Of a DNA stretch of 64,000 bases, positions 489-53,304 are shown piece by piece. Every line of letters starts with the position of its first letter. Position 1 is the first letter of the stretch. The position numbers and the translations under genes were made by a program. The DNA is from Escherichia coli (lineage in GTDB: Bacteria > Pseudomonadota > Gammaproteobacteria > Enterobacterales > Enterobacteriaceae), in assembly GCF_003334335.1 (NCBI RefSeq), contig NZ_QOWQ01000011.1, one strand, 5' to 3'. The notes beneath the pieces were generated by a model, which did not search any database, was not told the origin of the DNA, and saw only the letters and a list, made by a program, of their open reading frames with translations.

Positions 489-2346
489 TGAACTTGATGC
501 CGGTAATGTGCTGGCGGTTGAAAATCTGAATATTGCCTTTATGCAGGACCAGCAGAAAATAGCTGCGGTCCGCAATCTCTCTTTTAGTCTGCAACGCGGT
601 GAGACGCTGGCAATTGTTGGCGAATCCGGCTCCGGTAAGTCAGTGACTGCGTTGGCATTGATGCGCCTGTTGGAACAGGCGGGCGGTTTAGTACAGTGCG
701 ATAAAATGCTGTTGCAGCGGCGCAGTCGCGAAGTGATTGAACTTAGCGAGCAGAACGCTGCACAAATGCGCCATGTTCGCGGTGCGGATATGGCGATGAT
801 ATTTCAGGAGCCGATGACATCGCTGAACCCGGTATTTACTGTGGGTGAACAGATTGCCGAATCAATTCGTCTGCATCAGAACGCCAGTCGTGAAGAAGCG
901 ATGGTCGAGGCGAAGCGGATGCTGGATCAGGTACGCATTCCTGAGGCACAAACCATTCTTTCACGTTATCCGCATCAACTCTCTGGCGGGATGCGCCAGC
1001 GAGTGATGATTGCGATGGCGCTGTCATGCCGCCCGGCGGTGCTGATTGCCGATGAGCCAACCACCGCGCTGGATGTCACTATTCAGGCGCAGATCCTGCA
1101 ATTAATCAAAGTATTGCAAAAAGAGATGTCGATGGGCGTTATCTTTATCACTCACGATATGGGCGTGGTGGCAGAGATTGCCGATCGGGTACTGGTGATG
1201 TATCAGGGCGAGGCGGTGGAAACGGGTACCGTCGAACAGATTTTTCATGCACCGCAACATCCTTACACCCGTGCGCTGTTAGCTGCTGTTCCGCAACTTG
1301 GTGCGATGAAAGGGTTAGATTATCCCCGACGTTTCCCGTTGATATCGCTTGAACATCCAGCGAAACAGGCCCCCCCCATCGAGCAGAAAACGGTGGTGGA
1401 TGGCGAACCTGTTTTACGAGTGCGTAATCTTGTCACCCGTTTCCCTTTGCGCAGCGGTTTGTTGAATCGCGTAACGCGGGAAGTGCATGCCGTTGAGAAA
1501 GTCAGTTTTGATCTCTGGCCTGGCGAAACGCTATCGCTGGTGGGCGAGTCTGGCAGCGGTAAATCCACTACCGGGCGGGCGTTGCTGCGCCTGGTCGAAT
1601 CGCAGGGCGGCGAAATTATCTTTAACGGTCAGCGAATCGATACCTTGTCACCCGGCAAACTTCAGGCATTACGCCGGGATATTCAGTTTATTTTTCAGGA
1701 CCCTTACGCTTCGCTGGACCCACGTCAGACCATCGGTGATTCGATTATCGAACCGCTGCGTGTACACGGTTTATTGCCAGGTAAAGACGCGGCTGCACGC
1801 GTTGCGTGGTTGCTGGAGCGCGTGGGCCTGTTACCTGAACATGCCTGGCGTTACCCGCATGAGTTTTCCGGCGGTCAGCGCCAGCGCATCTGCATTGCTC
1901 GCGCGTTGGCATTGAATCCAAAAGTGATCATTGCCGACGAAGCCGTTTCGGCGCTGGATGTTTCTATTCGCGGGCAGATTATCAACTTGTTGCTCGATCT
2001 CCAGCGTGATTTCGGCATTGCGTATCTGTTTATCTCCCACGATATGGCGGTGGTAGAGCGGATTAGTCATCGTGTGGCGGTGATGTATCTCGGGCAAATT
2101 GTTGAAATTGGTCCACGGCGCGCGGTCTTCGAAAACCCGCAGCATCCTTATACGCGTAAATTACTGGCGGCAGTTCCGGTCGCTGAACCGTCCCGACAAC
2201 GACCGCAGCGTGTACTGCTGTCGGACGATCTTCCCAGCAATATTCATCTGCGTGGCGAAGAGGTGGCAGCCGTCTCGTTGCAATGCGTCGGGCCGGGGCA
2301 TTACGTCGCACAACCACAATCAGAATACGCATTCATGCGTAGATAA
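475..2346 (+). CDS. gsiA: Glutathione ABC importer ATP-binding subunit with two tandem ABC domains
   Basis: 623-aa product beginning (M)PHSDELDAG from a TTG at 475; two Walker A motifs (GESGSGKS twice) and two LSGG signatures; overlaps the iaaA 3' end by 14 nt. Confidence 0.9.
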
Positions 2347-2365
2347 CATTCAGGCGGAGAATAAA

Positions 2366-3903
2366 ATGGCAAGAGCTGTACACCGTAGTGGGTTAGTGGC
2401 GCTGGGCATTGCGACAGCGTTGATGGCATCTTGTGCATTCGCTGCCAAAGATGTGGTGGTGGCGGTAGGATCGAATTTCACCACGCTCGATCCGTATGAC
2501 GCAAATGACACGTTATCTCAGCCGTAGCGAAATCGTTTTACCAGGGGCTGTTCGGTCTGGATAAAGAGATGAAACTGAAAAACGTGCTGGCGGAGAGTTA
2601 TACCGTTTCCGATGACGGCATTACTTACACCGTGAAATTGCGGGAAGGCATTAAATTCCAGGATGGCACCGATTTCAACGCCGCGGCGGTGAAAGCGAAT
2701 CTGGACCGGGCCAGCGATCCGGCGAATCATCTTAAACGCTATAACCTGTATAAGAATATTGCTAAAACGGAAGCGATCGATCCGACAACGGTAAAGATTA
2801 CCCTCAAACAGCCGTTCTCAGCGTTTATTAATATTCTTGCCCATCCGGCGACCGCGATGATTTCACCGGCAGCGCTGGAAAAATATGGCAAGGAGATTGG
2901 TTTTTATCCGGTGGGAACCGGACCGTATGAACTGGATACCTGGAATCAGACCGATTTTGTGAAGGTGAAAAAATTCGCGGGTTACTGGCAGCCAGGATTG
3001 CCCAAACTGGACAGCATAACCTGGCGTCCGGTGGCGGATAACAACACCCGCGCGGCAATGCTGCAAACCGGTGAAGCGCAGTTTGCTTTCCCCATTCCTT
3101 ACGAGCAGGCCACACTGCTGGAGAAAAACAAAAATATCGAGTTGATGGCCAGTCCGTCAATTATGCAGCGTTATATCAGTATGAACGTGACGCAAAAGCC
3201 GTTCGATAACCCGAAGGTCCGTGAGGCGCTGAATTACGCCATTAACCGTCCGGCGCTGGTGAAAGTTGCCTTTGCGGGCTATGCAACGCCAGCTACTGGT
3301 GTGGTACCGCCAAGTATCGCCTACGCGCAAAGTTATAAACCGTGGCCTTACGATCCAGTGAAAGCGCGCGAATTACTGAAAGAGGCGGGATATCCCAACG
3401 GTTTCAGTACCACGCTGTGGTCGTCACATAACCACAGCACCGCGCAGAAAGTGCTGCAATTTACCCAGCAGCAGTTAGCGCAGGTCGGGATTAAAGCCCA
3501 GGTGACTGCGATGGATGCCGGACAGCGGGCGGCAGAAGTTGAAGGTAAAGGGCAAAAAGAGAGCGGCGTGCGGATGTTCTACACTGGCTGGTCGGCTTCA
3601 ACCGGCGAAGCGGACTGGGCACTATCGCCGCTGTTTGCCTCGCAGAACTGGCCACCGACGCTGTTTAATACCGCGTTTTACAGCAATAAACAGGTGGATG
3701 ACTTCCTGGCTCAGGCACTGAAAACTAATGATCCGGCGGAAAAGACCCGCTTATATAAGGCGGCGCAGGATATCATCTGGCAAGAATCGCCGTGGATCCC
3801 GCTGGTGGTAGAAAAACTGGTGTCGGCACACAGTAAAAACCTGACCGGTTTTTGGATCATGCCAGACACCGGCTTCAGCTTTGAAGACGCGGATTTGCAA
3901 TAA
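2366..3903 (+). pseudogene. gsiB: Glutathione-binding periplasmic protein gene disrupted by a 1-bp deletion
   Basis: ATG at 2366 with GGAG 8 nt upstream; signal-peptide N-terminus [26 protein letters not shown]; frame ends at TAG 2525..2527 after ...DTLSQP; the rest of the protein continues in the -1 frame (ORF 2569..3903). Restoring one G after 2521 gives continuous [23 protein letters not shown]. Confidence 0.8.
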
Positions 3904-4843: not shown

Positions 4844-5755
4844 ATGCGACTATTTAACTGGCGACGTCAGGCGGTGTTAAACGCCATGCCACTGGTCAAA
4901 CCTGACCAGGTACGTACACCGTGGCATGAATTCTGGCGACGATTTCGCCGTCAGCATATGGCGATGACCGCCGCATTATTCGTTATTTTATTGATTGTGG
5001 TGGCCATTTTTGCACGCTGGATCGCTCCCTATGACGCCGAAAATTATTTTGATTATGACAATCTGAATAACGGACCTTCTTTGCAGCACTGGTTTGGCGT
5101 CGATTCACTGGGGCGTGACATTTTCAGCCGTGTCCTGGTTGGTGCGCAAATCTCGCTGGCGGCGGGCGTGTTTGCCGTGTTTATCGGTGCGGCGATCGGG
5201 ACGTTGCTGGGCTTGCTCGCTGGATATTATGAAGGCTGGTGGGATCGGCTGATCATGCGCATTTGCGATGTGCTGTTTGCCTTCCCGGGTATTTTACTGG
5301 CGATCGCTGTTGTTGCGGTGTTGGGAAGCGGCATTGCTAACGTGATTATTGCAGTCGCCATTTTTTCCATCCCCGCGTTTGCCCGCCTGGTGCGCGGCAA
5401 CACGCTGGTGTTGAAACAGCAAACCTTTATTGAGTCAGCACGCAGTATTGGTGCCAGCGATATGACCGTTTTGTTGCGTCATATCCTGCCTGGGACCGTC
5501 TCTTCTATCGTGGTGTTTTTCACCATGCGCATTGGTACCTCGATTATCTCTGCCGCCAGCCTCTCATTTCTCGGCCTCGGTGCGCAGCCGCCGACACCAG
5601 AGTGGGGAGCAATGCTCAATGAGGCTCGAGCGGATATGGTTATCGCGCCGCATGTCGCTGTTTTTCCGGCCCTGGCTATTTTTCTGACCGTACTGGCGTT
5701 CAATTTGTTGGGCGATGGTTTACGCGATGCGCTGGATCCGAAAATTAAAGGATAG
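4844..5755 (+). CDS. gsiD: Glutathione ABC importer permease
   Basis: 303-aa ORF starting 3 nt after the gsiC stop; DppC/OppC-type permease. Confidence 0.93.
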
Positions 5756-5932
5756 TTACGTTTGAATATTGCTTGAAAGGGTAATCACCTCACAGGAAAT
5801 TATTGCCCTAAGCAAGTGTTGTAACTTTCTGCTGATTTTGTAGAATCGGGTAATTTGGTTAAAAAGCCGCAGCAAGGGACAATTTTTGCAGCGGCACAGC
5901 GTTCAGATAGTTATTTTGTTAAATGTATTAAC

Positions 5933-8281
5933 ATGCTGAGTTTATACGAAAAGATAAAGATAAGGCTGATAATTTTATTTTTATTGGCAGCACTGTCATT
6001 TATTGGTCTTTTTTTCATCATTAACTATCAACTGGTATCGGAGCGCGCGGTAAAACGTGCCGATAGCCGCTTTGAACTTATTCAGAAAAACGTTGGCTAT
6101 TTCTTTAAAGATATTGAACGTTCGGCCCTGACATTAAAGGACTCACTGTATTTATTAAAAAATACAGAGGAGATTCAACGCGCCGTGATTCTTAAAATGG
6201 AAATGATGCCATTTTTAGACTCGGTGGGACTGGTACTTGATGATAATAAATATTATCTTTTTTCGCGGAGGGCGAATGATAAAATCGTTGTTTATCATCA
6301 GGAACAAGTAAATGGACCGCTTGTCGACGAGTCAGGGCGGGTTATTTTTGCCGATTTTAACCCATCGAAACGACCGTGGTCGGTGGCTTCAGATGACTCT
6401 AACAACAGCTGGAATCCGGCATACAATTGCTTTGATCGTCCGGGTAAAAAATGTATCTCTTTTACGCTACACATCAACGGCAAAGATCACGATTTGTTAG
6501 CGGTGGATAAAATTCATGTCGATTTAAACTGGCGATATCTGAACGAGTATCTTGATCAAATCAGCGCTAATGATGAAGTTCTATTTTTGAAACAAGGCCA
6601 TGAGATCATTGCCAAGAATCAACTCGCTCGTGAAAAACTGATTATTTATAATAGCGAAGGTAATTATAATATTATTGATTCTGTCGATACTGAATATATC
6701 GAAAAAACATCAGCGGTGCCAAACAACGCATTATTCGAAATCTATTTTTATTATCCTGGCGGTAATTTATTGAACGCATCAGATAAACTTTTTTATCTGC
6801 CGTTTGCGTTCATTATTATCGTATTGCTGGTGGTTTATTTAATGACCACTCGTGTGTTCCGTCGGCAATTTTCTGAAATGACAGAGCTGGTTAATACGCT
6901 GGCGTTTTTGCCTGACTCAACGGATCAAATCGAGGCTCTGAAAATTCGTGAAGGCGATGCGAAAGAGATTATCAGCATCAAAAATTCGATCGCGGAAATG
7001 AAAGATGCCGAAATTGAACGGTCAAATAAATTGCTCTCACTGATCTCTTACGATCAGGAAAGTGGTTTTATTAAAAATATGGCGATTATTGAGTCTAACA
7101 ATAATCAGTATCTGGCTGTGGGGATCATCAAACTGTGTGGTCTGGAAGCCGTGGAAGCGGTGTTTGGTGTTGATGAGCGCAATAAAATCGTCAGGAAATT
7201 GTGTCAGCGAATTGCCGAGAAATATGCGCAATGCTGCGATATCGTGACATTCAATGCCGATCTCTATTTACTTCTGTGTCGGGAAAATGTACAGACATTT
7301 ACCCGTAAAATAGCGATGGTAAACGATTTTGACAGCAGCTTTGGCTACCGCAATCTGCGCATCCATAAGTCTGCCATTTGTGAACCTTTGCAGGGGGAAA
7401 ACGCCTGGAGTTACGCAGAAAAACTGAAACTGGCGATTTCCAGTATCCGTGACCATATGTTCTCAGAGTTTATTTTCTGTGATGACGCGAAACTCAACGA
7501 AATAGAAGAGAATATCTGGATTGCGCGTAATATTCGCCATGCAATGGAAATTGGCGAACTATTCCTCGTCTATCAACCGATCGTTGATATTAACACCCGC
7601 GCCATTCTGGGCGCGGAGGCGTTGTGCCGTTGGGTGTCTGCGGAGCGGGGGATCATTTCACCGCTGAAGTTCATTACCATTGCTGAAGATATCGGGTTTA
7701 TCAATGAGCTGGGTTATCAGATTATTAAAACGGCAATGGGTGAATTCAGACATTTTAGTCAGCGTGCGTCGCTGAAGGATGATTTCTTACTGCATATTAA
7801 TGTTTCGCCCTGGCAGTTAAACGAACCACACTTTCATGAGCGTTTTACCACCATCATGAAAGAAAATGGCCTGAAGGCGAACAGCCTCTGTGTTGAGATC
7901 ACTGAAACCGTGATCGAGCGAATTAATGAACATTTTTATCTCAATATTGAACAACTGCGTAAACAAGGGGTACGGATATCGATTGATGACTTTGGCACCG
8001 GTTTGTCAAACCTGAAACGTTTTTATGAAATTAATCCAGACAGCATAAAGGTGGACTCGCAATTCACCGGCGATATTTTCGGTACTGCGGGAAAAATTGT
8101 GCGCATTATTTTCGACCTGGCACGCTATAACCGGATCCCGGTGATTGCGGAAGGCGTAGAGAGCGAAGACGTTGCGCGCGAATTAATCAAATTAGGATGT
8201 GTTCAGGCTCAGGGGTATCTGTACCAGAAACCCATGCCATTCTCCGCCTGGGATAAAAGTGGAAAATTAGTAAAAGAGTAG
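5933..8281 (+). CDS. pdeI: c-di-GMP phosphodiesterase with periplasmic sensor region and C-terminal EAL domain
   Basis: 782-aa product from ATG 5933 ([10 protein letters not shown]...); the ORF track extends 26 codons further upstream to 5855; EAL-domain signatures (EALCRW, QPIVD) in the C-terminal half. K-12 name yliE. Confidence 0.88.
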
Positions 8282-8288
8282 TTTACGT

Positions 8289-9617
8289 ATGTCCAGAATC
8301 AATAAGTTCGTACTTACAGTCAGTCTGCTGATTTTTATCATGATTTCAGCAGTTGCCTGCGGGATCTACACTCAAATGGTAAAGGAACGGGTGTATAGCC
8401 TGAAACAGTCCGTTATTGATACTGCTTTTGCGGTGGCAAATATTGCTGAATATCGGCGTAGCGTGGCAATTGATCTTATCAACACGCTAAATCCCACGGA
8501 GGAACAGCTGTTGGTTGGTTTGCGCACAGCTTACGCCGACTCGGTTTCCCCCTCTTATTTGTACGATGTCGGTCCTTATCTGATTTCCAGTGACGAATGT
8601 ATTCAGGTAAAGGAGTTCGAGAAAAATTATTGTGCAGATATTATGCAGGTTGTGAAGTATCGACATGTCAAAAATACAGGGTTTATCTCTTTTGACGGTA
8701 AAACCTTCGTCTATTACCTCTATCCGGTAACTCACAATCGTAGTCTGATATTTTTGCTTGGTCTGGAGCGTTTTTCTTTACTGTCAAAATCGCTGGCGAT
8801 GGACAGCGAGAACCTGATGTTCTCTCTATTTAAGAACGGTAAACCGGTGACCGGTGATGAATATAATGCTAAAAACGCCATCTTCACCGTTTCGGAAGCG
8901 ATGGAGCACTTCGCCTATTTGCCGACCGGATTGTATGTATTTGCGTATAAAAAAGATGTTTATTTGCGGGTTTGTACATTGATTATTTTCTTTGCCGCAT
9001 TGGTGGCAGTGATATCGGGTGCCAGTTGCCTCTATCTGGTACGCAGAGTGATTAATCGTGGTATTGTGGAGAAAGAAGCCATCATTAATAACCATTTTGA
9101 ACGCGTACTGGATGGCGGGCTTTTCTTTTCGGCTGCCGATGTCAAAAAACTCTACAGTATGTATAACTCGGCGTTCCTGGACGACCTGACCAAAGCAATG
9201 GGCAGAAAATCCTTTGACGAAGATTTAAAAGCGCTGCCGGAAAAAGGCGGTTATTTGTGCCTGTTTGACGTCGATAAATTCAAAAACATTAACGACACCT
9301 TCGGTCATTTGCTGGGCGATGAAGTGTTGATGAAAGTGGTGAAAATCCTTAAATCACAGATCCCGGTAGATAAAGGTAAAGTCTACCGCTTCGGCGGTGA
9401 CGAATTTGCGGTGATTTATACGGGTGGAACGCTGGAAGAGTTGCTATCGATTCTAAAAGAAATCGTTCATTTCCAGGTGGGAAGCATTAATTTAAGTACC
9501 AGTATCGGTGTAGCACATTCAAATGAATGTCCTACCGTCGAACGCTTGAAAATGCTGGCGGATGAGCGGCTGTATAAGAGTAAGAAAAACGGCAGGGCAC
9601 AGATTAGCTGGCAGTAA
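8289..9617 (+). CDS. dgcI: Membrane-anchored diguanylate cyclase (GGDEF domain)
   Basis: 442-aa ORF 7 nt downstream of pdeI; C-terminal RFGGDEF motif. K-12 name yliF. Confidence 0.9.
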
Positions 9618-9627
9618 TCATTATTCG

Positions 9628-9657
9628 CAGGCCGGACAAATGATTTTGCCCGGCCTG
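9628..9657. terminator. Hairpin between convergent dgcI and rimO, likely bidirectional terminator
   Basis: Inverted repeat caggccgg (9628..9635) / ccggcctg (9650..9657) around a T-rich loop, in the 46-bp gap between two convergent stops. Confidence 0.5.
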
Positions 9658-9663
9658 AATTAA

Positions 9664-10989
9664 TTAAACCCGGCTACCCCACAAATCGTACTCATCGGCG
9701 TGCTCGACTTTCACACGCAGGATATCACCCGGCTTAACGTTGGTTTCACCATTGAGATAAACCGCGCCGTCGATTTCCGGTGCATCTGCCATGCTGCGAC
9801 CAATCGCGCCTTCTTCGTCCACTTCGTCGATAATCACCAGAATTTCACGGCCCACTTTCTCTTGCAGGCGCTCGGCGGAAATCTGCTGCTGCAGCTGCAT
9901 GAAACGGTTCCAGCGTTCTTCTTTAACTTCTTCCGGAACCTGGTCAGGCAGGGCATTGGCGTCTGCACCTTCAACCGGGCTGTATTTAAAGCAGCCAACG
10001 CGATCCAGACGCGCTTCTTTCAGGAAGTCGAGTAGCATCTGGAAATCTTCTTCTGTCTCGCCAGGGAAGCCGACAATAAAGGTTGAGCGTAGGGTCAGTT
10101 CCGGGCAGATTTCGCGCCACTGTTTGATGCGCGCCAGTTGGCGATCTACAGAACCCGGACGCTTCATCAGTTTGAGAATGCGCGGGCTGGCGTGCTGCAA
10201 CGGAATGTCCAGATACGGCAGGATTTTGCCTTCTGCCATCAGTGGGATGACGTCGTCCACATGCGGATAAGGGTAAACGTAGTGCAGACGTGTCCAGATC
10301 CCCAGTTTCGATAACTGTTCGCACAGGCTGACCATGCTGGTTTTTACCGGCTCGCCGTTGTGGAAGCCAGTACGATGTTTAACATCAACGCCATAGGCGG
10401 AAGTATCCTGCGAGATCACCAGAATCTCTTTAACGCCCGCATCTACCAGACGTTTCGCTTCACTTAACACTTCGCCAATCGGACGGCTCACCAGGTCGCC
10501 GCGCATAGACGGAATAATGCAGAAGGTGCAGCGGTGATTACAGCCTTCAGAAATTTTCAGATAGGCATAATGACGCGGCGTCAGTTTCACACCTTGTTCT
10601 GGCACCAGGCTCAGGAATGGGTTGTGTTTCGGTTTTGGCACGTAGTGATGAACGTGCTCCAGAACCTGCTCATAGCTATGAGGCCCGGTGATTTCCAGCA
10701 CTTTCGGGTGGACTTCGCGGATCTGATCTTCTTTTGCCCCCAGACAACCGGTCACAATAACCTTGCCGTTTTCATTCAACGCTTCACCAATGGCTTCCAG
10801 TGATTCTTGTACCGCGCTGTCAATAAAGCCGCAGGTGTTGACGATCACCATGTCCGCATCGTCATAGCTCGGTACCACGTCATAACCTTCAGTGCGGAGT
10901 TCGGTGAGAATACGCTCTGAATCAACAAGGTTTTTCGGACAGCCAAGGGAAACAAAGCCGATTTTCGGCTGGGGAGTTACTTTGCTCAT
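9664..10989 (-). CDS. rimO: Ribosomal protein S12 methylthiotransferase (radical SAM)
   Basis: 441-aa ORF; radical-SAM CxxxCxxC (CNHRCTFC) and N-terminal MTTase cysteines (GCPKN...NTCGF). Confidence 0.95.
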
Positions 10990-21087: not shown

Positions 21088-22773
21088 TTATCCTAATCCT
21101 GGCCATACCATGACGATGATTGTCCCTGCCAGCGTCAGCAGGACGTTGGCGATTGCATAGGTGCCCGCATAGCCCAGCGCCGGGATGTTACTGCGAGCTG
21201 TATCACTGATGATCTCCATTGCCGGCGCGCAGGTACGTGCGCCCATCATTGCGCCGAACAACAGCGCGCGGTTCATTCGCAATACATAAGCACCGAACAA
21301 GAAACAGATAACCACGGGCACCAGACTGACAATCAATCCGGCAATCAACATCTGACCGCCAATCGCGCCCAGGCCGTTATTAATACCGCTACCGGCGCTC
21401 AGACCAACGCCTGCCATAAACACCATCAAGCCGAACTCTTTCACCATGCTTAATGCACCCTGCGGAATGTAACCGAAGGTCGGGTGGTTAGCACGCATAA
21501 AGCCCAGCATAATTCCGGCGAATAACAACCCGGCAGCGTTCCCCATGCCGAAACTGAATGTGCTGAACTGGAAGGTGATCATCCCGATCATCAGCCCAAT
21601 AACAAAGAAGGCGCAGAATGCCAGCAGGTCAGTGACCTGGCTGTGAATCGAGATAAAGCCGATGCGATCGGCGATGGTTTTTACGCGGCGGGCATCGCCG
21701 CTGACTTGTAAAACGTCACCTTTGTTAAGCACGACGTTGTCATCTATCGGCATCTCAATCTGGCTACGAATGACGCGGTTAAGGAAGCAACCGTGATCGG
21801 TCAACTTCAGTTGTGCGAGACGTTTACCTACAGCGTTATGGTTTTTAACGACCACTTCTTCAGTGACGATACGCATGTCGAGAAGGTCACGATCGAAAAC
21901 TTCTTTACCGTTACGGAAGCTGGGATCGAGTCGGGCATGGGCGTCGGGATAGCCTACCAACGCTATTTCATCGCCCATTTGTAGCACGGCATCACCGTCT
22001 GGATTTGCCAGAATCCCGTTACGTCGAATACGTTCAATGTAGCAGCCGGTTTGTCGATAAATACCCAGTTCACGCAGATTTTTGCCGTCGGTCCAGGCCA
22101 CCAGTTCCGGGCCGACGCGATAGGCGCGGATCACCGGTAAATAAACCTTACGGTTGGCATCAGTGTCCAGGCCACGTTCGCGGGCGATTTGCTGGGCGCT
22201 GGTCTGTAAGTCCTGATGCTGCAATTTCGGCAAGTAACGCGCACCAACAATCAAACTCACCAGACCGATTAAATAGGTTAAGGCATACCCGAGGCTCAGA
22301 TTATCCAGTGCCAGTGAGAGCTGCCTGCTTTCCATGCCGGAATGACGCAGTGTATCGCCAGCACCGACCAGAACCGGTGTCGACGTCATAGAGCCTGCTA
22401 ACATACCGGCCGTCAGGCCAATATCCCAGCCAAACAGCTTACCTAACCCTAAGGCGATCACCAGCGCACTGCCAACCATCACCAGTGCTAACATTAGGTA
22501 ATTTTTCCCATCGCGAAAAAAAATGGAAAAAAAGTTCGGTCCGGCTTCGACCCCGACGCAGAAAATAAACAGCATAAAGCCAAGATTAAGCGCATCGGTG
22601 TTAATGCTGAAATGTTGTTGGCCTAATAACAGCGATACGACTAAAACGCCAATGGAATTACCCAGTTGGATCGAACCAAGTCGTAACTTTCCGAGACATA
22701 GCCCAAGCGCGAGGACCACAAATAATAACAGAATGTAATTCCCATTTAACAATTCGGCGACGTTTATATTCAC
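21088..22773 (-). CDS. ybjL: Putative transporter with duplicated membrane domains and central TrkA-C domains
   Basis: 561-aa ORF; recognised as K-12 YbjL. Confidence 0.92.
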
Positions 22774-23042
22774 GGAGGCTAACTTCTTGTTTACTAGTAA
22801 GCTGTTGAAAGAAATGGTAATTTACGATAATGTTTTTTACCAGAATTCAGGGCGCAGATTCATTCAGCGCACCTAAACGATAGTAAAGTAACAATATATT
22901 TTACTAGTGTAATCACATTAGGTATCAACGGCTATATGAATTGCGTTGGCCTATATTAGCATGGAATGCGAAGCGGCTTTATCTTACTGAACGCCACACT
23001 GGCGAAAAATGTGTTCGATAGACGCAGTGTCAGGAGGAACGA

Positions 23043-23420
23043 GTGAAACATAAACAACGTTGGGCGGGGGCAATCTGCTGTTTTGTCCTCTTCATTGTGG
23101 TGTGCCTTTTTCTGGCGACGCACATGAAAGGCGCTTTTCGGGCTGCCGGGCATCCTGAAATCGGCTTGCTATTTTTCATTCTTCCTGGAGCAGTCGCCAG
23201 CTTCTTTTCACAGCGTAGAGAAGTCCTGAAACCTCTGTTTGGCGCAATGCTGGCGGCACCCTGTTCGATGCTCATTATGCGGCTGTTTTTTTCACCGACG
23301 CGCTCATTCTGGCAAGAGCTGGCATGGTTACTAAGCGCGGTGTTCTGGTGTGCGCTGGGGGCACTGTGTTTCTTATTTATCAGTAGTTTGTTTAAACCAC
23401 AGCACAGAAAAAATCAGTAA
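23043..23420 (+). CDS. ybjM: Inner membrane protein of unknown function
   Basis: 125-aa ORF starting at GTG 23043 with GGAGGA upstream. Confidence 0.85.
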   Translation: MKHKQRWAGAICCFVLFIVVCLFLATHMKGAFRAAGHPEIGLLFFILPGAVASFFSQRREVLKPLFGAMLAAPCSMLIMRLFFSPTRSFWQELAWLLSAVFWCALGALCFLFISSLFKPQHRKNQ

Positions 23421-23449: not shown

Positions 23450-23707
23450 TCAGGCGTCCAGATTTTCTTTCACCCATGCAGCAAAATCGGTATAGCCGCC
23501 GATATGTTGCTGATCGACAAAAATCTGCGGCACGGTTTCTACGGGTTTACCTGCCTTTTGTTGTAGATCTTCTTTAGTGATCCCTTCCGCACGAATATCT
23601 ACATACTGATACTGAAAATCATCGCGTTCATTGCTCAATTTCTCAGCCAGATCTTTTGCACGCACACAGTAAGGGCAACCCGAACGACCAAAAATAACGG
23701 TTTGCAT
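23450..23707 (-). CDS. grxA: Glutaredoxin 1
   Basis: 85-aa product from ATG 23707 (MQTVIFGRSGCPYCVRAKDLAEKL...) with the CPYC active site; GAGGAGAG Shine-Dalgarno. Confidence 0.93.
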   Translation of the reverse strand: MQTVIFGRSGCPYCVRAKDLAEKLSNERDDFQYQYVDIRAEGITKEDLQQKAGKPVETVPQIFVDQQHIGGYTDFAAWVKENLDA

Positions 23708-23866
23708 TATTTCTCTCCTCATAGATTTATGCCTGTAATGATCACGCTAAAATGTATTCGCTGAAAGTAGGTTTAACCTGTTGCATTAATTGCTAAAAGC
23801 TATAACTGTTAAACACAATACAGTGAAAAGTTTTAGACTGAAGGCTCACTTTGCAGAGGGAAGCGT

Positions 23867-48305: not shown

Positions 48306-49001
48306 TTAATCACGCTTTTCCAGCAGGGTCCGGTAAATCAGACCACCGATAATGCCGCCGACAATTGGCACCACCCAGAAGAACCACAGTTGTTCTAATG
48401 CCCAGCCGCCCTGGAAGATAGCAACCGCGGTGCTGCGCGCCGGGTTAACAGAAGTGTTAGTCACCGGAATACTAATTAAGTGAATCAGGGTTAAGGCCAG
48501 ACCAATAGCGATCGGCGCAAAACCTGCCGGCGCGAATTTGTCGGTTGCGCCGTGGATCACCAACAGGAAACCTGCACTCAATACCAGTTCAACTACCAGC
48601 GCGGAAAGCATGGAATAACCGCCTGGTGAATGCTCGCCATAACCGTTAGAAGCAAAACCGCTGGCTGCCGCGTCAAAACCCGTTTTACCACTGGCAATTA
48701 AATACAGCAGCGCCGCTGCAACAATACCGCCGACAACCTGGGCAATTACGTAGCCAACGACTTCTTTTGCCGGAAAACGTCCGCCAGCCCATAAACCAAT
48801 AGTGACCGCCGGGTTAAAATGACCACCAGAAATATGACCAACAGCAAAGGCCATCGTCAGAACGGTCAGACCGAACGCCAACGCCACGCCGGCAAAACCA
48901 ATGCCTAATTCCGGGAAGCCTGCGGCCAGTACAGCACTACCACAGCCACCAAAAACAAGCCAGAAAGTACCAAAACATTCAGCTGCTAATTTTCTGAACA
49001 T
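48306..49001 (-). CDS. aqpZ: Aquaporin Z water channel
   Basis: 231-aa product from ATG 49001 ([17 protein letters not shown]...), two NPA motifs ([14 protein letters not shown]). Confidence 0.93.
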
Positions 49002-49426
49002 ATCCACCTCAATTAAAAATTGACCCTGTGAAAAATATGGTCGTTTTATAGGGTCGTCGTAAAAAAGTGACGACGGAAATAATGCGCGGCTATTTTAAAA
49101 ACGAAGGCGAGTCATTCACCAGATAAATAAATCCAGTAAATTTGATTTAGGGCAACAGCGGGTTGCCCCATATAGTCATTTGTCTGATTGACAGTGTAGT
49201 GCACGCAAAAGATTTAATCCTTTAGGCGTAATAAAAAATAATTTATCATGCTAATTATTTGATTTTGTTGTTTTTGCAGACTTATCAGCAAGAGGGAGTA
49301 TAACGCGATTATTCGCTCATTTTTCAGACATTTGCCATGCTTAAATGTGATGTCATCACGTATTAGCAAGGCCTTTCCCGTTATACTGCCAGCGTAAAGG
49401 ATAAGTCACATATTTCTGGAGGGGAT

Positions 49427-51085
49427 ATGATTCTTGAGCGCGTTGAAATTGTGGGTTTTCGCGGTATCAACCGTTTGTCGTTGATGCTGGAACAAAACAA
49501 CGTCCTGATTGGGGAGAACGCGTGGGGTAAATCCAGCTTGCTGGACGCCTTAACTCTGCTGCTATCGCCAGAATCAGATCTCTACCATTTTGAGCGCGAC
49601 GATTTCTGGTTCCCGCCGGGAGATATCAACGGGCGAGAACATCATCTGCATATTATTTTGACCTTCCGCGAATCGCTGCCAGGCCGACATCGGGTTCGCC
49701 GTTATCGGCCGCTGGAAGCGTGCTGGACGCCATGCACCGATGGCTATCACCGTATTTTTTATCGTCTGGAAGGGGAGAGTGCGGAAGACGGCAGCGTGAT
49801 GACACTGCGCAGTTTTCTCGATAAAGACGGACATCCGATTGATGTCGAGGATATTAACGATCAGGCACGCCATCTGGTGCGTTTAATGCCGGTGCTGCGC
49901 TTGCGTGATGCCCGTTTTATGCGCCGTATTCGTAACGGCACGGTGCCAAATGTCCCTAATGTGGAAGTCACCGCGCGCCAGCTCGATTTCCTCGCCCGTG
50001 AGTTATCCTCACATCCGCAAAATCTCTCTGATGGGCAGATTCGTCAGGGACTTTCCGCAATGGTACAGCTGCTTGAGCATTATTTCTCTGAGCAGGGGGC
50101 CGGACAGGCGCGATATCGTTTAATGCGGCGGCGAGCCAGCAATGAGCAACGAAGCTGGCGCTATCTGGATATCATCAACCGGATGATTGACCGACCTGGT
50201 GGGCGCTCGTATCGGGTTATTTTGCTCGGCCTATTTGCTACTTTGTTGCAGGCAAAAGGCACATTGCGACTGGATAAAGACGCCCGTCCATTGTTGCTGA
50301 TCGAAGATCCAGAAACCCGTTTACACCCCATTATGCTTTCAGTTGCCTGGCATCTGTTGAATCTTCTGCCATTGCAGCGCATTGCCACCACCAACTCGGG
50401 TGAGTTGCTTTCGTTAACGCCGGTAGAGCATGTTTGCCGACTGGTACGTGAGTCCTCGCGCGTTGCCGCCTGGCGTCTGGGGCCGAGTGGCTTGAGTACC
50501 GAAGATAGCCGACGCATATCCTTTCACATTCGTTTTAACCGTCCGTCATCGCTGTTTGCACGCTGCTGGTTGCTGGTGGAAGGGGAAACGGAAACCTGGG
50601 TTATCAATGAACTGGCGCGTCAGTGCGGACATCATTTTGATGCCGAAGGGATCAAGGTCATTGAGTTTGCCCAGTCCGGGCTAAAGCCACTGGTTAAATT
50701 TGCCCGCCGAATGGGGATTGAATGGCATGTACTGGTCGATGGCGATGAAGCAGGGAAGAAATATGCCGCTACGGTACGCAGCCTGTTGAATAACGATCGG
50801 GAAGCCGAACGAGAACATTTAACGGCGTTACCGGCGCTGGATATGGAACATTTTATGTATCGCCAGGGATTTTCCGATGTGTTCCACCGCATGGCGCAAA
50901 TCCCGGAAAATGTACCGATGAATCTACGCAAAATTATCTCGAAAGCGATCCATCGCTCTTCCAAACCCGATCTTGCCATTGAAGTGGCAATGGAGGCAGG
51001 ACGTCGTGGTGTGGACTCCGTACCGACGCTGCTGAAAAAAATGTTCTCACGCGTGCTGTGGCTGGCGCGCGGTCGCGCGGATTAA
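49427..51085 (+). CDS. ybjD: OLD-family protein: N-terminal ABC-like ATPase fused to C-terminal TOPRIM nuclease domain
   Basis: 552-aa ORF; Walker A GENAWGKSS (aa 29-37, nt 49511..49537), Walker-B-like LLLIEDPE, TOPRIM glutamate in LLVEGETE (nt 50576..50593) and DxD in VLVDGDEAG (nt 50738..50746). Confidence 0.9.
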   Translation: MILERVEIVGFRGINRLSLMLEQNNVLIGENAWGKSSLLDALTLLLSPESDLYHFERDDFWFPPGDINGREHHLHIILTFRESLPGRHRVRRYRPLEACWTPCTDGYHRIFYRLEGESAEDGSVMTLRSFLDKDGHPIDVEDINDQARHLVRLMPVLRLRDARFMRRIRNGTVPNVPNVEVTARQLDFLARELSSHPQNLSDGQIRQGLSAMVQLLEHYFSEQGAGQARYRLMRRRASNEQRSWRYLDIINRMIDRPGGRSYRVILLGLFATLLQAKGTLRLDKDARPLLLIEDPETRLHPIMLSVAWHLLNLLPLQRIATTNSGELLSLTPVEHVCRLVRESSRVAAWRLGPSGLSTEDSRRISFHIRFNRPSSLFARCWLLVEGETETWVINELARQCGHHFDAEGIKVIEFAQSGLKPLVKFARRMGIEWHVLVDGDEAGKKYAATVRSLLNNDREAEREHLTALPALDMEHFMYRQGFSDVFHRMAQIPENVPMNLRKIISKAIHRSSKPDLAIEVAMEAGRRGVDSVPTLLKKMFSRVLWLARGRAD

Positions 51086-52074
51086 CCGCGAAACATCGTG
51101 GCCATTTGTGGCTGAATAGCGTCGAGCATCTCATAGCGCCGACGGTATTCAGCCCGTTTTTTACTGGCGATTTCGGCAATCTCTTTTCGTGCTATCTGTG
51201 CTGGAAGGCGGTAATGGCGTTCAGCATCACATACGCCGCCAACCGATTCCCAGAAAGCGTTGTAATCAGCGTGGATCTTGCCTTCTTTATCGCGATAACG
51301 CAGGCTGCGGTAAATATGCGTTTCATTGCTGACGGCAATAATCTGCTCTACCTGCAAACGTTGGGCAAACAGACAGGCCGCTTCCATCACGAGGCGTTTG
51401 GGAAATAGCCCGTGGCAGGCTTTCGTCGCATTCTGGATTTCCTGATGTGGAATTTCCCATTTTGCGCCTTGCAGTCCGCCAATAAACATCGTTCTTTTCC
51501 CCTGATATTCACACAGGGTAAACGTGATCTCTGCCAGAGGAATACCTTCGCTGTTGCGGAACAGGATTGTGCTGTCACCTTCTTTATCCATTGAGATCAT
51601 CATGGTCAGCTCAAGCGTGAACTGCTCGCCGTTTTTGCCTTCCAGCTTCGCCAGTTGCAGCCCGGGGGTATTCAAATATAAGCTGAATTCTTCCGCCGAC
51701 ATACATTCGCGGAGTAACGCATAATGGTAACGTAACGCCTCCAGCAATTGCTTACGGCTAAGATTCGCCGCAAGGTAAGGGCGATGCAGACGCACAGGCA
51801 GTCGCGGCTGGCGCGTTAACAATACATTGAGATTAGGCCAGTGGGAAAGTTCGTTCATCCACTCAACGCTTAAACGCGGCATAATCAACGAGCGCAGCAA
51901 AAATTTCTGGCGAAAACTACGGCGATGCCAGAATTTACCCGGCCGACACTGTCCACGTGCCAGACTAAGAAAAAGTGACAGGCTGCTGAGAGATTCAGAT
52001 GGCGTAAAGGTCCGTTCAGTTAGCTGCGACATATTCATGAAATCAATGGTTATACATGGCGTCGATTTCACCAT
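51082..52074 (-). CDS. ybjX: VirK-like protein (DUF535)
   Basis: 330-aa ORF from ATG 52074; stop overlaps the ybjD stop in a shared TTAA; an internal Met (MSQLTERT...) is an alternative start. Confidence 0.8.
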   Translation of the reverse strand: MVKSTPCITIDFMNMSQLTERTFTPSESLSSLSLFLSLARGQCRPGKFWHRRSFRQKFLLRSLIMPRLSVEWMNELSHWPNLNVLLTRQPRLPVRLHRPYLAANLSRKQLLEALRYHYALLRECMSAEEFSLYLNTPGLQLAKLEGKNGEQFTLELTMMISMDKEGDSTILFRNSEGIPLAEITFTLCEYQGKRTMFIGGLQGAKWEIPHQEIQNATKACHGLFPKRLVMEAACLFAQRLQVEQIIAVSNETHIYRSLRYRDKEGKIHADYNAFWESVGGVCDAERHYRLPAQIARKEIAEIASKKRAEYRRRYEMLDAIQPQMATMFRG

Positions 52075-52188
52075 TGCGTATCTTAACCAAACATCAATAG
52101 TGTGATTACTAACGTAAATTTTAGGGTTTTGTTGATATTTCGTTGAAGTTAATGACCCGGATTGGCATATGGAGTATTCAGAAAATTT

Positions 52189-53304
52189 ATGAAAAAGCGG
52201 AAAACCGTGAAGAAGCGTTACGTTATTGCGCTGGTGATAGTCATCGCCGGACTGATTACGTTATGGAGAATTCTTAACGCACCCGTGCCGACTTATCAGA
52301 CGCTGATTGTGCGCCCCGGTGATTTACAGCAAAGCGTGCTGGCGACCGGAAAGCTGGACGCGCTGCGTAAGGTTGATGTGGGCGCGCAGGTCAGCGGTCA
52401 GTTGAAAACTCTGTCGGTGGCGATTGGCGATAAAGTAAAAAAAGACCAGCTTTTAGGGGTTATTGATCCTGAACAGGCTGAAAACCAGATTAAGGAGGTC
52501 GAAGCAACGCTGATGGAGCTACGTGCGCAGCGGCAGCAGGCGGAAGCGGAGCTGAAACTGGCGCGGGTGACGTATTCCCGTCAGCAACGTCTGGCACAAA
52601 CGAAGGCTGTTTCACAGCAGGATCTCGACACCGCCGCGACGGAGATGGCTGTGAAACAGGCGCAAATTGGCACCATTGACGCGCAAATCAAGCGCAATCA
52701 GGCTTCTCTCGATACGGCTAAAACCAATCTCGATTACACTCGCATCGTTGCCCCGATGGCCGGGGAAGTCACGCAAATCACCACTCTGCAAGGCCAGACG
52801 GTGATTGCCGCACAACAAGCACCGAACATTCTGACGCTGGCAGATATGAGCACCATGCTGGTAAAAGCGCAGGTTTCTGAAGCGGATGTAATCCACCTGA
52901 AGCCGGGGCAAAAAGCCTGGTTTACGGTGCTTGGCGATCCACTGACGCGCTACGAGGGGCAAATCAAGGATGTACTACCGACGCCGGAAAAGGTTAACGA
53001 CGCTATTTTCTATTACGCCCGTTTTGAAGTCCCCAACCCCAATGGTTTGCTGCGGCTGGATATGACTGCGCAAGTGCATATTCAGCTCACCGATGTGAAA
53101 AATGTGCTGACGATCCCTCTGTCGGCGTTAGGCGATCCGGTTGGCGATAATCGTTATAAAGTCAAATTGTTGCGTAATGGTGAAACACGCGAGCGTGAAG
53201 TGACGATTGGCGCACGTAACGATACCGATGTTGAGATTGTCAAAGGGCTTGAAGCGGGCGATGAAGTGGTGATTGGTGAGGCCAAACCAGGAGCTGCACA
53301 ATGA
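52189..53304 (+). CDS. macA: Macrolide efflux periplasmic adaptor (membrane fusion protein)
   Basis: 371-aa product from ATG 52189 ([18 protein letters not shown]...); coiled-coil/HlyD-type profile. Confidence 0.93.

Follow-up and report, generated by a model that had tools for sequence, protein, structure and literature searches.

In Escherichia coli, the convergently oriented gsiD and rimO enclose two adjacent genes, pdeI and dgcI, that encode an EAL-domain and a GGDEF-domain protein. We conclude that this known locus is probably a cassette that an ancestor of Escherichia acquired from a low-GC source. The two-gene c-di-GMP cassette would have entered horizontally, landed between gsiD and rimO and been inherited vertically thereafter, while its base composition was partly ameliorated. 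The pair would then be an Escherichia-specific acquired cassette and not ancestral enterobacterial equipment. The DNA analysed here is a stretch of 64,000 nucleotides (the window), in which region 5933..9617 is the known pdeI-dgcI locus of E. coli K-12 (yliE-yliF; b0833, b0834). It is 100% identical to K-12-type genomes and does not differ from the K-12 genes in sequence, coordinates or start codon. Every one of the 5426 complete E. coli genomes compared has the region, 5381 of them at near full length. Earlier work already covers the genes, the domains they encode and the paralogs on plasmids, and little about them is new.

Base composition and origin of the locus

The AT-rich, Escherichia-specific insertion spans approximately 3.87 kb (5756..9627, plus strand). 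It comprises the 177-nt gsiD-pdeI spacer (5756..5932; GC 0.373), which contains the pdeI promoter, followed by pdeI (yliE; 5933..8281, plus strand; 782 amino acids), dgcI (yliF; 8289..9617, plus strand; 442 amino acids) and a short tail. The left flank is gsiD (4844..5755, plus strand), whose GC content of 0.531 is typical of the host, and the right flank is rimO (9664..10989, minus strand; GC 0.526), which is convergent with dgcI. The gene identities and coordinates proposed in a preliminary description of this DNA, pdeI (EAL) and dgcI (GGDEF), match both RefSeq and Pfam; the RefSeq annotation places the pdeI coding sequence at 5933..8281, inside an open reading frame of 5855..8281, and dgcI at 8289..9617.

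GC content is 0.382 in the first kilobase of pdeI, 0.416 in the whole of pdeI and 0.435 in dgcI, compared with a mean of 0.512 for the 64-kb window (standard deviation of 1-kb windows, 0.036). The two genes have the lowest GC content among the 47 annotated (others, 0.522±0.028; z-scores against the 45 other genes of -3.8 for pdeI and -3.1 for dgcI), and the 11 1-kb windows with the least GC in the 64 kb all begin within 5601-6601, the lowest values falling at 5700-6700. The marked AT-richness relative to gsi and rimO that had been noticed in the sensor end of pdeI and upstream of it is genuine (0.382 and 0.373 versus 0.531 and 0.526), but it extends over the whole pair and is not limited to the sensor end. 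GC3 is 0.45 in pdeI and 0.50 in dgcI, compared with 0.57±0.05 and with 0.58 for the flanking genes, and it rises along pdeI from 0.39 to 0.48 and then to 0.50. Of the two measures that had been proposed for comparison with the neighbouring genes, GC content deviates and local codon adaptation does not (z = -0.4 for pdeI and -1.0 for dgcI). Codon adaptation would therefore have missed a foreign origin, and it was dropped as a test of foreignness.

The gsiD-rimO site was compared across enterobacterial genera by scanning a genome collection for RimO, which gave, among the matches listed, Citrobacter, Enterobacter, Leclercia, Superficieibacter and Mangrovibacter; Salmonella and E. fergusonii are not among them. 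Among these listed matches, pdeI-dgcI is missing from the site in Citrobacter werkmanii, Enterobacter sp. Bisph1, Enterobacter sp. BIGb0383 and Mangrovibacter, in all of which the gsiD and rimO stop codons lie 45-100 bp apart. E. albertii carries both genes. Comparison of E. coli with E. albertii gives a dS of 1.09 for pdeI and 0.66 for dgcI, and of 0.87 and 0.60 for the flanks; dN/dS of the pair is 0.06 and 0.05, indicating purifying selection. With a dS similar to that of the flanks, the pair is an old resident of the genome.

Relatives of the pair were sought among proteins and plasmids. An exhaustive HMMER search with the sensor half of PdeI drew only 54 matches from 1.84 billion representative proteins, and the majority of these are fragments from E. 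coli; a word-indexed protein search with the sensor region returned near-identical Escherichia sequences only and is uninformative on remote relatives. Among 72,556 plasmids, 76 records matched the sensor region of PdeI and 102 matched that of DgcI, and both sets come only from Escherichia plus one Salmonella plasmid. Each set includes eight near-identical (at least 98%), chromosome-like copies of the K-12 pair, and the others are diverged paralogs. Diverged pairs in the same gene order, with 31-40% identity, occur on Escherichia and Salmonella plasmids, where they adjoin bcsA/bcsB, TraI, an integrase or transposases. Plasmid YliE/YliF pairs located by bcs clusters (bioRxiv 10.1101/2025.05.09.653004) resemble the chromosomal pair in gene order, domain architecture, AT-richness and full-length homology. 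They differ from it in an identity of only 31-40%, in a still lower GC content of 0.33-0.35 and in their position in mobile DNA beside bcsA/bcsB or transfer genes; chromosomal pdeI-dgcI, in contrast, is flanked by housekeeping genes and has no bcs genes in its vicinity.

The AT-richness could instead reflect the amino-acid make-up (I, K, N, F, Y) of membrane sensors that were inherited vertically and lost in the other genera. GC2 is low (0.31-0.32) and constant across all paralogs, which places much of the bias at the protein level, and FYMINK residues make up 33-36% of PdeI and of DgcI. The unremarkable codon adaptation fits such an account, as do the borders of the insertion, which share no direct or inverted repeat of at least 9 nt and hold no IS, tRNA, integrase or annotated mobility gene. 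GC3, however, is also low, and it is graded from 0.26-0.31 in the diverged plasmid pairs through 0.41/0.47 in E. albertii to 0.45/0.50 in K-12 (pdeI/dgcI). The clean junction of gsiD and rimO in Citrobacter, Enterobacter and Mangrovibacter and the near confinement of the family to Escherichia and its plasmids also argue against vertical inheritance, which we regard as very unlikely. The empty sites in other enterobacterial genera, taken together with the AT-richer paralogous cassettes on plasmids, support a horizontally acquired, partly ameliorated cassette and bear out the different evolutionary origin suggested in the preliminary description.

The composition of the locus is also relevant to silencing by H-NS. 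Positions 5756-6932 are 61.9% AT and contain 75 TpA steps and 32 A/T tracts of at least 6 nt per kb, compared with window averages of 45 and 10.6 per kb. The published 10-mer H-NS motif is not clearly enriched (7 matches versus 4.7±1.8 per equal-sized window), and no link of yliE/pdeI to H-NS was found in the literature searched. The locus resembles the H-NS-silenced AT-rich islands of Enterobacteriaceae in having more than 60% AT over more than 1 kb including the promoter, in its probable foreign origin, and in its very weak expression under standard conditions with induction at 37 °C, and it may be considered a putative member of this group. Silencing by H-NS is plausible from the composition and the induction at 37 °C. 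H-NS probably binds the AT-rich 5' kilobase, which would account for expression being very low at 28 °C and induced at 37 °C.

Translational start and 5' leader of pdeI

Comparative evidence identifies the ATG at 5933 as the correct start of pdeI and the 26-codon extension with a TTG start upstream of it (5855..5932, plus strand) as an ORF-finder artefact. The start had previously been assigned 26 codons inside the open reading frame ((5933-5855)/3 = 26), and this assignment holds. The extension is noncoding and is broken in three of three comparators: it carries an in-frame TAG at codon 4 in E. coli strain 8_140198, a 1-nt deletion that shifts the frame in E. coli strain MS20659, and TAA TAG in E. 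albertii. The sequence from ATG 5933 onward is conserved. With the extension broken by a stop or frameshift in all three, ATG 5933 stands. Furthermore, a plasmid PdeI paralog aligns from residue 1, the paralogs begin at an equivalent ML..., and the first hydrophobic segment of PdeI follows directly after ATG 5933, in the position of a signal anchor. Functional, membrane-located PdeI has been expressed from this ATG (PMC11651652).

A product that begins at TTG 5855 would have 26 extra N-terminal residues. The reading frame is open from 5855, the extension is part of several gene calls in databases (P0012, P0027, P0043, P0058), and a good Shine-Dalgarno sequence is absent at both candidate starts. 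The interruptions listed above, the equivalent start of the paralogs and the position of the hydrophobic segment are all against this start, as is a conserved promoter-like box that would set the start of the transcript at about 5853, and we consider it extremely unlikely. The annotated start is right, and the longer pdeI gene calls circulating in databases are artefacts.

This box is a predicted sigma-70-like site, TTGTAA-16-TAGAAT (5819..5846, plus strand), which is kept in E. coli and E. albertii; if the prediction holds, transcription would begin near 5853, where the long reading frame has its TTG. Scans for sigma-70 sites and terminators found no excess over shuffled sequence (9 versus 9.6 and 6 versus 4.5, respectively), and the box conserved in E. 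albertii is the sole promoter prediction used here. A 250-bp native fragment (5686-5932) drives expression (PMC11651652). A hairpin is also predicted in the 5' leader (5866..5895, plus strand). Three E. coli strains share the stem but vary in the loop, E. albertii has other sequence in place of this segment, and folding of the leader reaches a z-score of -1.9 only.

Operon layout and expression

The spacing of 7 nt and the operon-like layout noted in the preliminary description are confirmed: the gap between the genes (8282..8288) reads TTTACGT, and the junction has no predicted terminator. A weak Shine-Dalgarno-like sequence, AAGAGT (8274..8279, plus strand), lies 9 nt before the dgcI ATG and overlaps the last pdeI codons and the stop, a position compatible with translational coupling. 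Five lineages share the order and orientation of the two genes, which are spaced by -23 to +32 nt. Of the 27 plasmids that both searches list, 25 have the homologs of pdeI and dgcI side by side, and in one more the pair runs across the origin of the record. The divergence of the PdeI and DgcI proteins is correlated (r = 0.945). In strain CFT073, both genes are up at 37 °C compared with 23 °C (log2 2.94 for pdeI and 1.41 for dgcI), and gsiD and rimO are not induced. Both genes are probably cotranscribed from the promoter in the gsiD-pdeI spacer, with translation of pdeI from ATG 5933.

Alternatively, pdeI and dgcI may be expressed mainly independently, with a dgcI promoter, possibly sigma-54-dependent, located inside the 3' end of pdeI. 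An in vitro gSELEX peak of RpoN holoenzyme maps between yliE and yliF (PMC8743547), DgcI was undetectable among FLAG-tagged GGDEF/EAL proteins while PdeI is not on the list of undetectable ones (PMC5635695), and the induction of the two genes by temperature differs approximately three-fold. By these observations, expression is not strictly one-to-one, and the RpoN peak at the junction leaves room for an additional internal promoter. However, a scan for sigma-54 motifs gave 297 matches versus 340 expected and nothing canonical at the junction; no canonical GG-N10-GC occurs near it, and the best match (7993-8008) lacks the -12 GC. The short gap without a terminator, the tight or overlapping junction kept in all lineages and the response of both genes, but not of the flanks, to temperature also weigh against independent expression, which we consider unlikely.

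Downstream of the pair, a REP-like GC-rich hairpin (9628..9657) lies between the convergent genes dgcI and rimO. Its predicted folding energy is -20 kcal/mol on one strand and -23.5 kcal/mol on the other, and it is probably a bidirectional terminator. The empty gsiD-rimO site of Citrobacter contains a similar hairpin, AGGCCGG...CCGGCCT. An Rfam scan of 5500-10000 gave zero matches.

Domains of PdeI and DgcI and their activities

By sequence and model comparison, PdeI is a membrane sensor with three domains: CHASE9, a GGDEF fold that is catalytically dead, and an EAL phosphodiesterase domain that is intact. The periplasmic CHASE9 sensor domain predicted by Pfam (amino acids 35-150; 6035..6382, plus strand) is flanked by hydrophobic segments within amino acids 7-36 and 282-310. 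The EAL domain (amino acids 532-767; 7526..8233, plus strand; PF00563, E = 2e-69) matches solved structures of active phosphodiesterases (E = 3e-44) and retains all of the expected residues: E562-A-L-C-R566, N623, E655-ITE658, D685-D686-F-G, K706, E740-GVE743 and Q760. Its catalytic motifs are invariant in five lineages, and their status agrees with a published motif table (PMC3484386). The degenerate GGDEF-fold domain in the middle of the protein (approximately amino acids 366-525; 7028..7507, plus strand) contains G412 and has NADLY at the position of the GGDEF motif, where paralogs have NKNKY, SPYKY or SDKRF; the motif is thus unconserved. Pfam gave no GGDEF match for this domain, and BLASTP detected no similarity between it and the GGDEF domain of DgcI. 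In Foldseek searches with its AF2 model (pLDDT 64), the top matches are all GGDEF domains, including the degenerate one of DosP. PdeI, as its sequence indicates, cannot be a canonical cyclase, which sharpens an existing conflict in the literature.

DgcI, by its domains a membrane-bound sensor cyclase, consists of a transmembrane segment, a GAPES2 domain (amino acids 26-229), a second transmembrane segment and a GGDEF domain (amino acids 295-437; PF00990, E = 1.6e-24). Its substrate and metal motifs are present (DVDKF at 327, NDTFGH at 335 and GGDEF at 369). The RxxD I-site is common in the GGDEF family and is not obligatory. It is absent at positions -9 to -6 before GGDEF in DgcI and in all its paralogs. 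The intact GGDEF motif of DgcI (amino acids 369-373; 9393..9407, plus strand), listed in the same motif table (PMC3484386), is kept in all five lineages.

The opposing c-di-GMP activities ascribed to the two proteins in the preliminary description are indicated at the level of their domains, by an intact EAL and an intact GGDEF motif, and are contested in the literature, where one study speaks for them (PMC7553319) and another against (PMC11651652). The upstream phosphodiesterase PdeI may be a built-in brake on, or partner of, a cyclase without feedback inhibition. Its role as a brake is contradicted by the finding that overexpression of PdeI from pBAD-pdeI raises c-di-GMP approximately 11-fold (PMC11651652). 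PdeI may thus not be an antagonist of DgcI and may raise c-di-GMP in vivo, either itself or via an activated cyclase. [quoted passage not shown] Against this stand the loss of the GGDEF motif from PdeI and its paralogs and the intact, invariant catalytic residues of the EAL domain. [quoted passage not shown] We regard it as somewhat unlikely that PdeI raises c-di-GMP in this manner.

A more speculative and rather doubtful proposal is that PdeI and DgcI are obligate cognate partners in a mobile c-di-GMP set-point module, which would move together with cellulose-synthase clusters. The dead GGDEF domain of PdeI would dock onto the I-site-less GGDEF domain of DgcI, and PdeI would activate or stabilise DgcI. 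If so, the 11-fold rise would represent PdeI-dependent activation or stabilisation of DgcI and not cyclase activity of PdeI. There is room for such a pair in several observations: pairing and co-divergence are kept down to 31% identity; PdeI has lost its GGDEF motif; DgcI is without feedback inhibition and toxic when expressed alone; and the eLife study left dgcI unexamined.

Paired enzymes of this type are known elsewhere. The E. coli dosC-dosP operon (dgcO-pdeO) likewise combines a sensor cyclase with a sensor phosphodiesterase of degenerate-GGDEF/EAL architecture (PMC5635695), and in the structural comparison the modelled middle domain of PdeI matches the degenerate GGDEF domain of DosP best. 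It differs in that the cyclase gene comes first, reversing the order, and in that its expression is RpoS-dependent and occurs in stationary phase, whereas pdeI-dgcI is induced at 37 °C. The sensors of dosC-dosP are cytoplasmic haem domains, in contrast to the periplasmic CHASE9 and GAPES2 domains of PdeI and DgcI. In the cdg operons of Komagataeibacter (Acetobacter) xylinus, reportedly described by Tal et al. in 1998, pdeA is followed by dgc and the operons are functionally tied to cellulose synthase. They share with pdeI-dgcI a phosphodiesterase gene upstream of the cyclase gene, and the tie to cellulose is apparently common to the plasmid paralogs. The K. xylinus proteins of the 1998 work by Tal et al. 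are reportedly soluble PAS-GGDEF-EAL isoenzymes with mutual homology.

The pdeI-dgcI locus and its base composition

The window is a segment of a K-12-type E. coli chromosome with the gene order iaaA, gsiABCD, pdeI, dgcI, rimO, bssR, yliI and onward. The c-di-GMP signalling genes pdeI (yliE, encoding an EAL protein) and dgcI (yliF, encoding a GGDEF protein) occupy 5933..8281 and 8289..9617 in RefSeq, in agreement with the coordinates and names of the preliminary description, and are separated by 7 nt (TTTACGT). The locus is already known, and the earlier observation of the pair is confirmed. The region 5600-9800 is 100% identical to several K-12-like genomes and matches all 5426 of 5426 complete E. 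coli genomes, 5381 of which hold a near-full-length copy. Within the neighboring gsiB, at approximately 2520, the window lacks one G relative to strain JW-5 (TCTCA-GCC versus TCTCAGGCC), which splits this gene (512 aa elsewhere) into ORFs 2099..2527 and 2569..3903; this is either a frameshift pseudogene of this strain or a sequencing error.

The mean GC content of the window is 0.512 (sd 0.036 in 1-kb windows). That of the gsiD-pdeI spacer is 0.373, of the first kb of pdeI 0.382, of the whole of pdeI 0.416 and of dgcI 0.435, compared to 0.531 for gsiD and 0.526 for rimO. Of all 1-kb windows in the 64 kb, the 11 with the lowest GC start within 5601-6601, and pdeI (z = -3.8) and dgcI (z = -3.1) are the lowest in GC of all when compared with 45 other annotated genes, being low at each of the three codon positions. 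The AT-richness originally ascribed to the first kb of pdeI is therefore real, but it is not limited to the sensor end, since both genes are AT-rich; GC3 along pdeI climbs from 0.39 to 0.48 to 0.50. Codon adaptation, one of the checks initially proposed, did not deviate with a local reference (pdeI, z = -0.4; dgcI, z = -1.0) and would have missed the signal. Other sustained AT-rich stretches (200-bp AT >= 0.58) lie at 22593-23045, 23530-23942, 26323-26786, 48915-49472 and 51939-52315; each is far shorter than the pdeI tract, and in the annotated 50 kb they fall mostly into intergenic DNA (around ybjM and grxA, upstream of potF, and in the aqpZ/ybjD interval).

An inserted cassette with paralogs on plasmids

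A RimO scan of species-representative genomes yielded enterobacterial loci with 10-kb flanks, the matches listed including Citrobacter, Enterobacter, Leclercia, Superficieibacter and Mangrovibacter but neither Salmonella nor E. fergusonii. Among these matches, the gsiD stop and the rimO stop are 45-100 bp apart in Citrobacter werkmanii, Enterobacter sp. Bisph1, Enterobacter sp. BIGb0383 and Mangrovibacter, and the sole content of this interval is a hairpin. The rimO-side hairpin of E. coli (9628-9657) is similar to that of the Citrobacter empty site, which places the inserted segment at about 5756-9627. Neither repeats nor mobility genes were found at its borders. Both genes are present at the same place in E. 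albertii, with identities to E. coli of 88% for PdeI, 93% for DgcI, 97% for GsiD and 99.8% for RimO. Between these species dS is 1.09 for pdeI and 0.66 for dgcI, similar to the flanks (0.87, 0.60), and dN/dS is 0.06 and 0.05, respectively; the cassette is a long-standing resident under purifying selection.

Escherichia plasmids carry full-length PdeI homologs (36-38% identity), each followed directly by a GAPES2-GGDEF gene (40% identity) and then by bcsA and bcsB. The same ordered pair occurs in two further lineages, one (sensor half, 29% identity) adjoining TraI and an integrase and having 93% DNA identity to a Salmonella plasmid, the other (25% identity) adjoining a Y1 transposase and cellulose synthase. 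Across lineages the paired genes overlap by up to 23 nt or stand up to 32 nt apart. Of the 27 plasmids that both searches listed, 25 carry the dgcI-like gene 3' of the pdeI-like one and in the same orientation, and in a 26th the pair straddles the record origin. PdeI and DgcI pairwise identities co-vary (r = 0.945, closest pair excluded). The paralogous cassettes are the AT-richest (GC 0.33-0.35, GC3 0.26-0.31), followed by E. albertii (GC3 of pdeI/dgcI, 0.41/0.47) and K-12 (0.45/0.50), with GC2 constant throughout, a gradation of the kind expected of amelioration. The suggestion that the pair has a foreign origin was thus largely right, given the empty sites in C. werkmanii, Enterobacter and Mangrovibacter and the AT-richer plasmid paralogs.

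The PdeI/DgcI family is very narrow. A search with the PdeI sensor half returned 54 matches among 1.84 billion representative proteins, mostly E. coli fragments, and a sensor-region search of 72,556 plasmids found matches in Escherichia only, plus one Salmonella record. A 2025 preprint (bioRxiv 10.1101/2025.05.09.653004) has already described plasmid YliE/YliF homologs beside bcs clusters, confined to Escherichia.

The interval between gsiD and rimO is a hot spot where cargo varies. A RelE/ParE-HTH toxin-antitoxin pair separates dgcI from rimO in E. coli 8_140198 (comparison locus L088, 4288-4993), Superficieibacter has four unrelated genes at the site (L005, 11448-14286), and E. albertii NBRC 107761 has a HEAT-repeat-like gene (L004, 2016-2729) with 47% identity to a Superficieibacter gene at the same site. 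IS1 lies inside pdeI in one strain and replaces the entire pair in another. In the same E. albertii strain, a T-run in pdeI (L004, ~6200-6215, codon ~28) is one T short, causing a frameshift after the first transmembrane segment and leaving an ORF of only 743 aa with a GTG start; either the gene is a pseudogene or the missing T reflects a sequencing error in the homopolymer.

Start codon, leader and expression of pdeI

The mechanical ORF begins at TTG 5855, 26 codons 5' of the annotated ATG. The 78 nt before ATG 5933 show no conservation of a reading frame, conservation beginning at the ATG, and the alignment of the plasmid PdeI paralog begins at residue 1. The extension is broken by TAG at codon 4 in strain 8_140198, a 1-nt deletion in MS20659 and TAA TAG in E. 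albertii, and functional, membrane-located PdeI has been made from ATG 5933 (PMC11651652); the start assigned in the preliminary description is correct. A spurious extension of 26 codons or similar is present in the public pdeI-fragment predictions P0012, P0027, P0043 and P0058, and thus the ORF artefact circulates in protein databases. A promoter-like TTGTAA-16-TAGAAT at 5819-5846, conserved in E. albertii, would start transcription at about 5853, and 250 bp of upstream DNA is enough as promoter (PMC11651652). The predicted leader contains two predicted hairpins, a 10-bp one at 5866-5895 and another at 5897-5938 that pairs CAGCGU with the start-codon sequence AUGCUG; the z-score of the leader fold is only -1.9. 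Three E. coli strains keep the stem of the first hairpin but differ in its loop, and in E. albertii this segment is replaced.

In CFT073 at 37 °C versus 23 °C, pdeI is up 7.7-fold and dgcI 2.6-fold, with gsiD and rimO unchanged. A link between the leader hairpins and this induction is conceivable. Composition and thermoregulation suggest that H-NS may silence the pair; a literature search found no report of H-NS at this locus. An in-vitro RpoN binding peak (gSELEX) has been reported at the yliE/yliF junction (PMC8743547), where a motif scan found no canonical sigma-54 element. The sequence TGGCACCGGTTTGTCA at 7993-8008 resembles a -24/-12 element without the -12 GC, simply encodes FGTGLS, a motif of the EAL domain, and may or may not be the source of the peak.

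Domains and activities of PdeI and DgcI

PdeI comprises CHASE9 (aa 35-150) and EAL (aa 532-767) domains (Pfam), with hydrophobic segments within aa 7-36 and aa 282-310. Its EAL domain has the complete set of catalytic and metal-binding motifs, invariant across five lineages, and aligns with active phosphodiesterases of solved structure (E = 3e-44). The region ~aa 366-525 has no sequence match in Pfam or PDB; the top Foldseek matches of its AlphaFold model (five sequences, pLDDT 64) are all GGDEF domains, the best being that of DosP, which is degenerate. On sequence grounds PdeI cannot perform canonical cyclase chemistry, because NADLY occupies the GGDEF motif position, which is unconserved among paralogs. 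The opposing activities proposed for the pair are an over-simple description: PdeI overexpression blocks phage N4, as do other phosphodiesterases (PMC7553319), whereas it has also been found to raise c-di-GMP 11-fold (PMC11651652), in a study that left dgcI out of account and reported no in-vitro enzymology.

DgcI comprises GAPES2 (aa 26-229) and GGDEF (aa 295-437) domains (Pfam), with GGDEF and substrate-binding motifs intact; no RxxD I-site was found in DgcI (aa 357-373, 9357-9407). Every family member, including the paralogs in comparison loci L003, L084 and L085, keeps GGDEF and lacks this product-inhibition site. DgcI protein was undetectable in one study, and its overexpression is toxic (PMC5635695). 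The missing RxxD may explain this toxicity, and may be the reason that dgcI always travels behind a phosphodiesterase gene.
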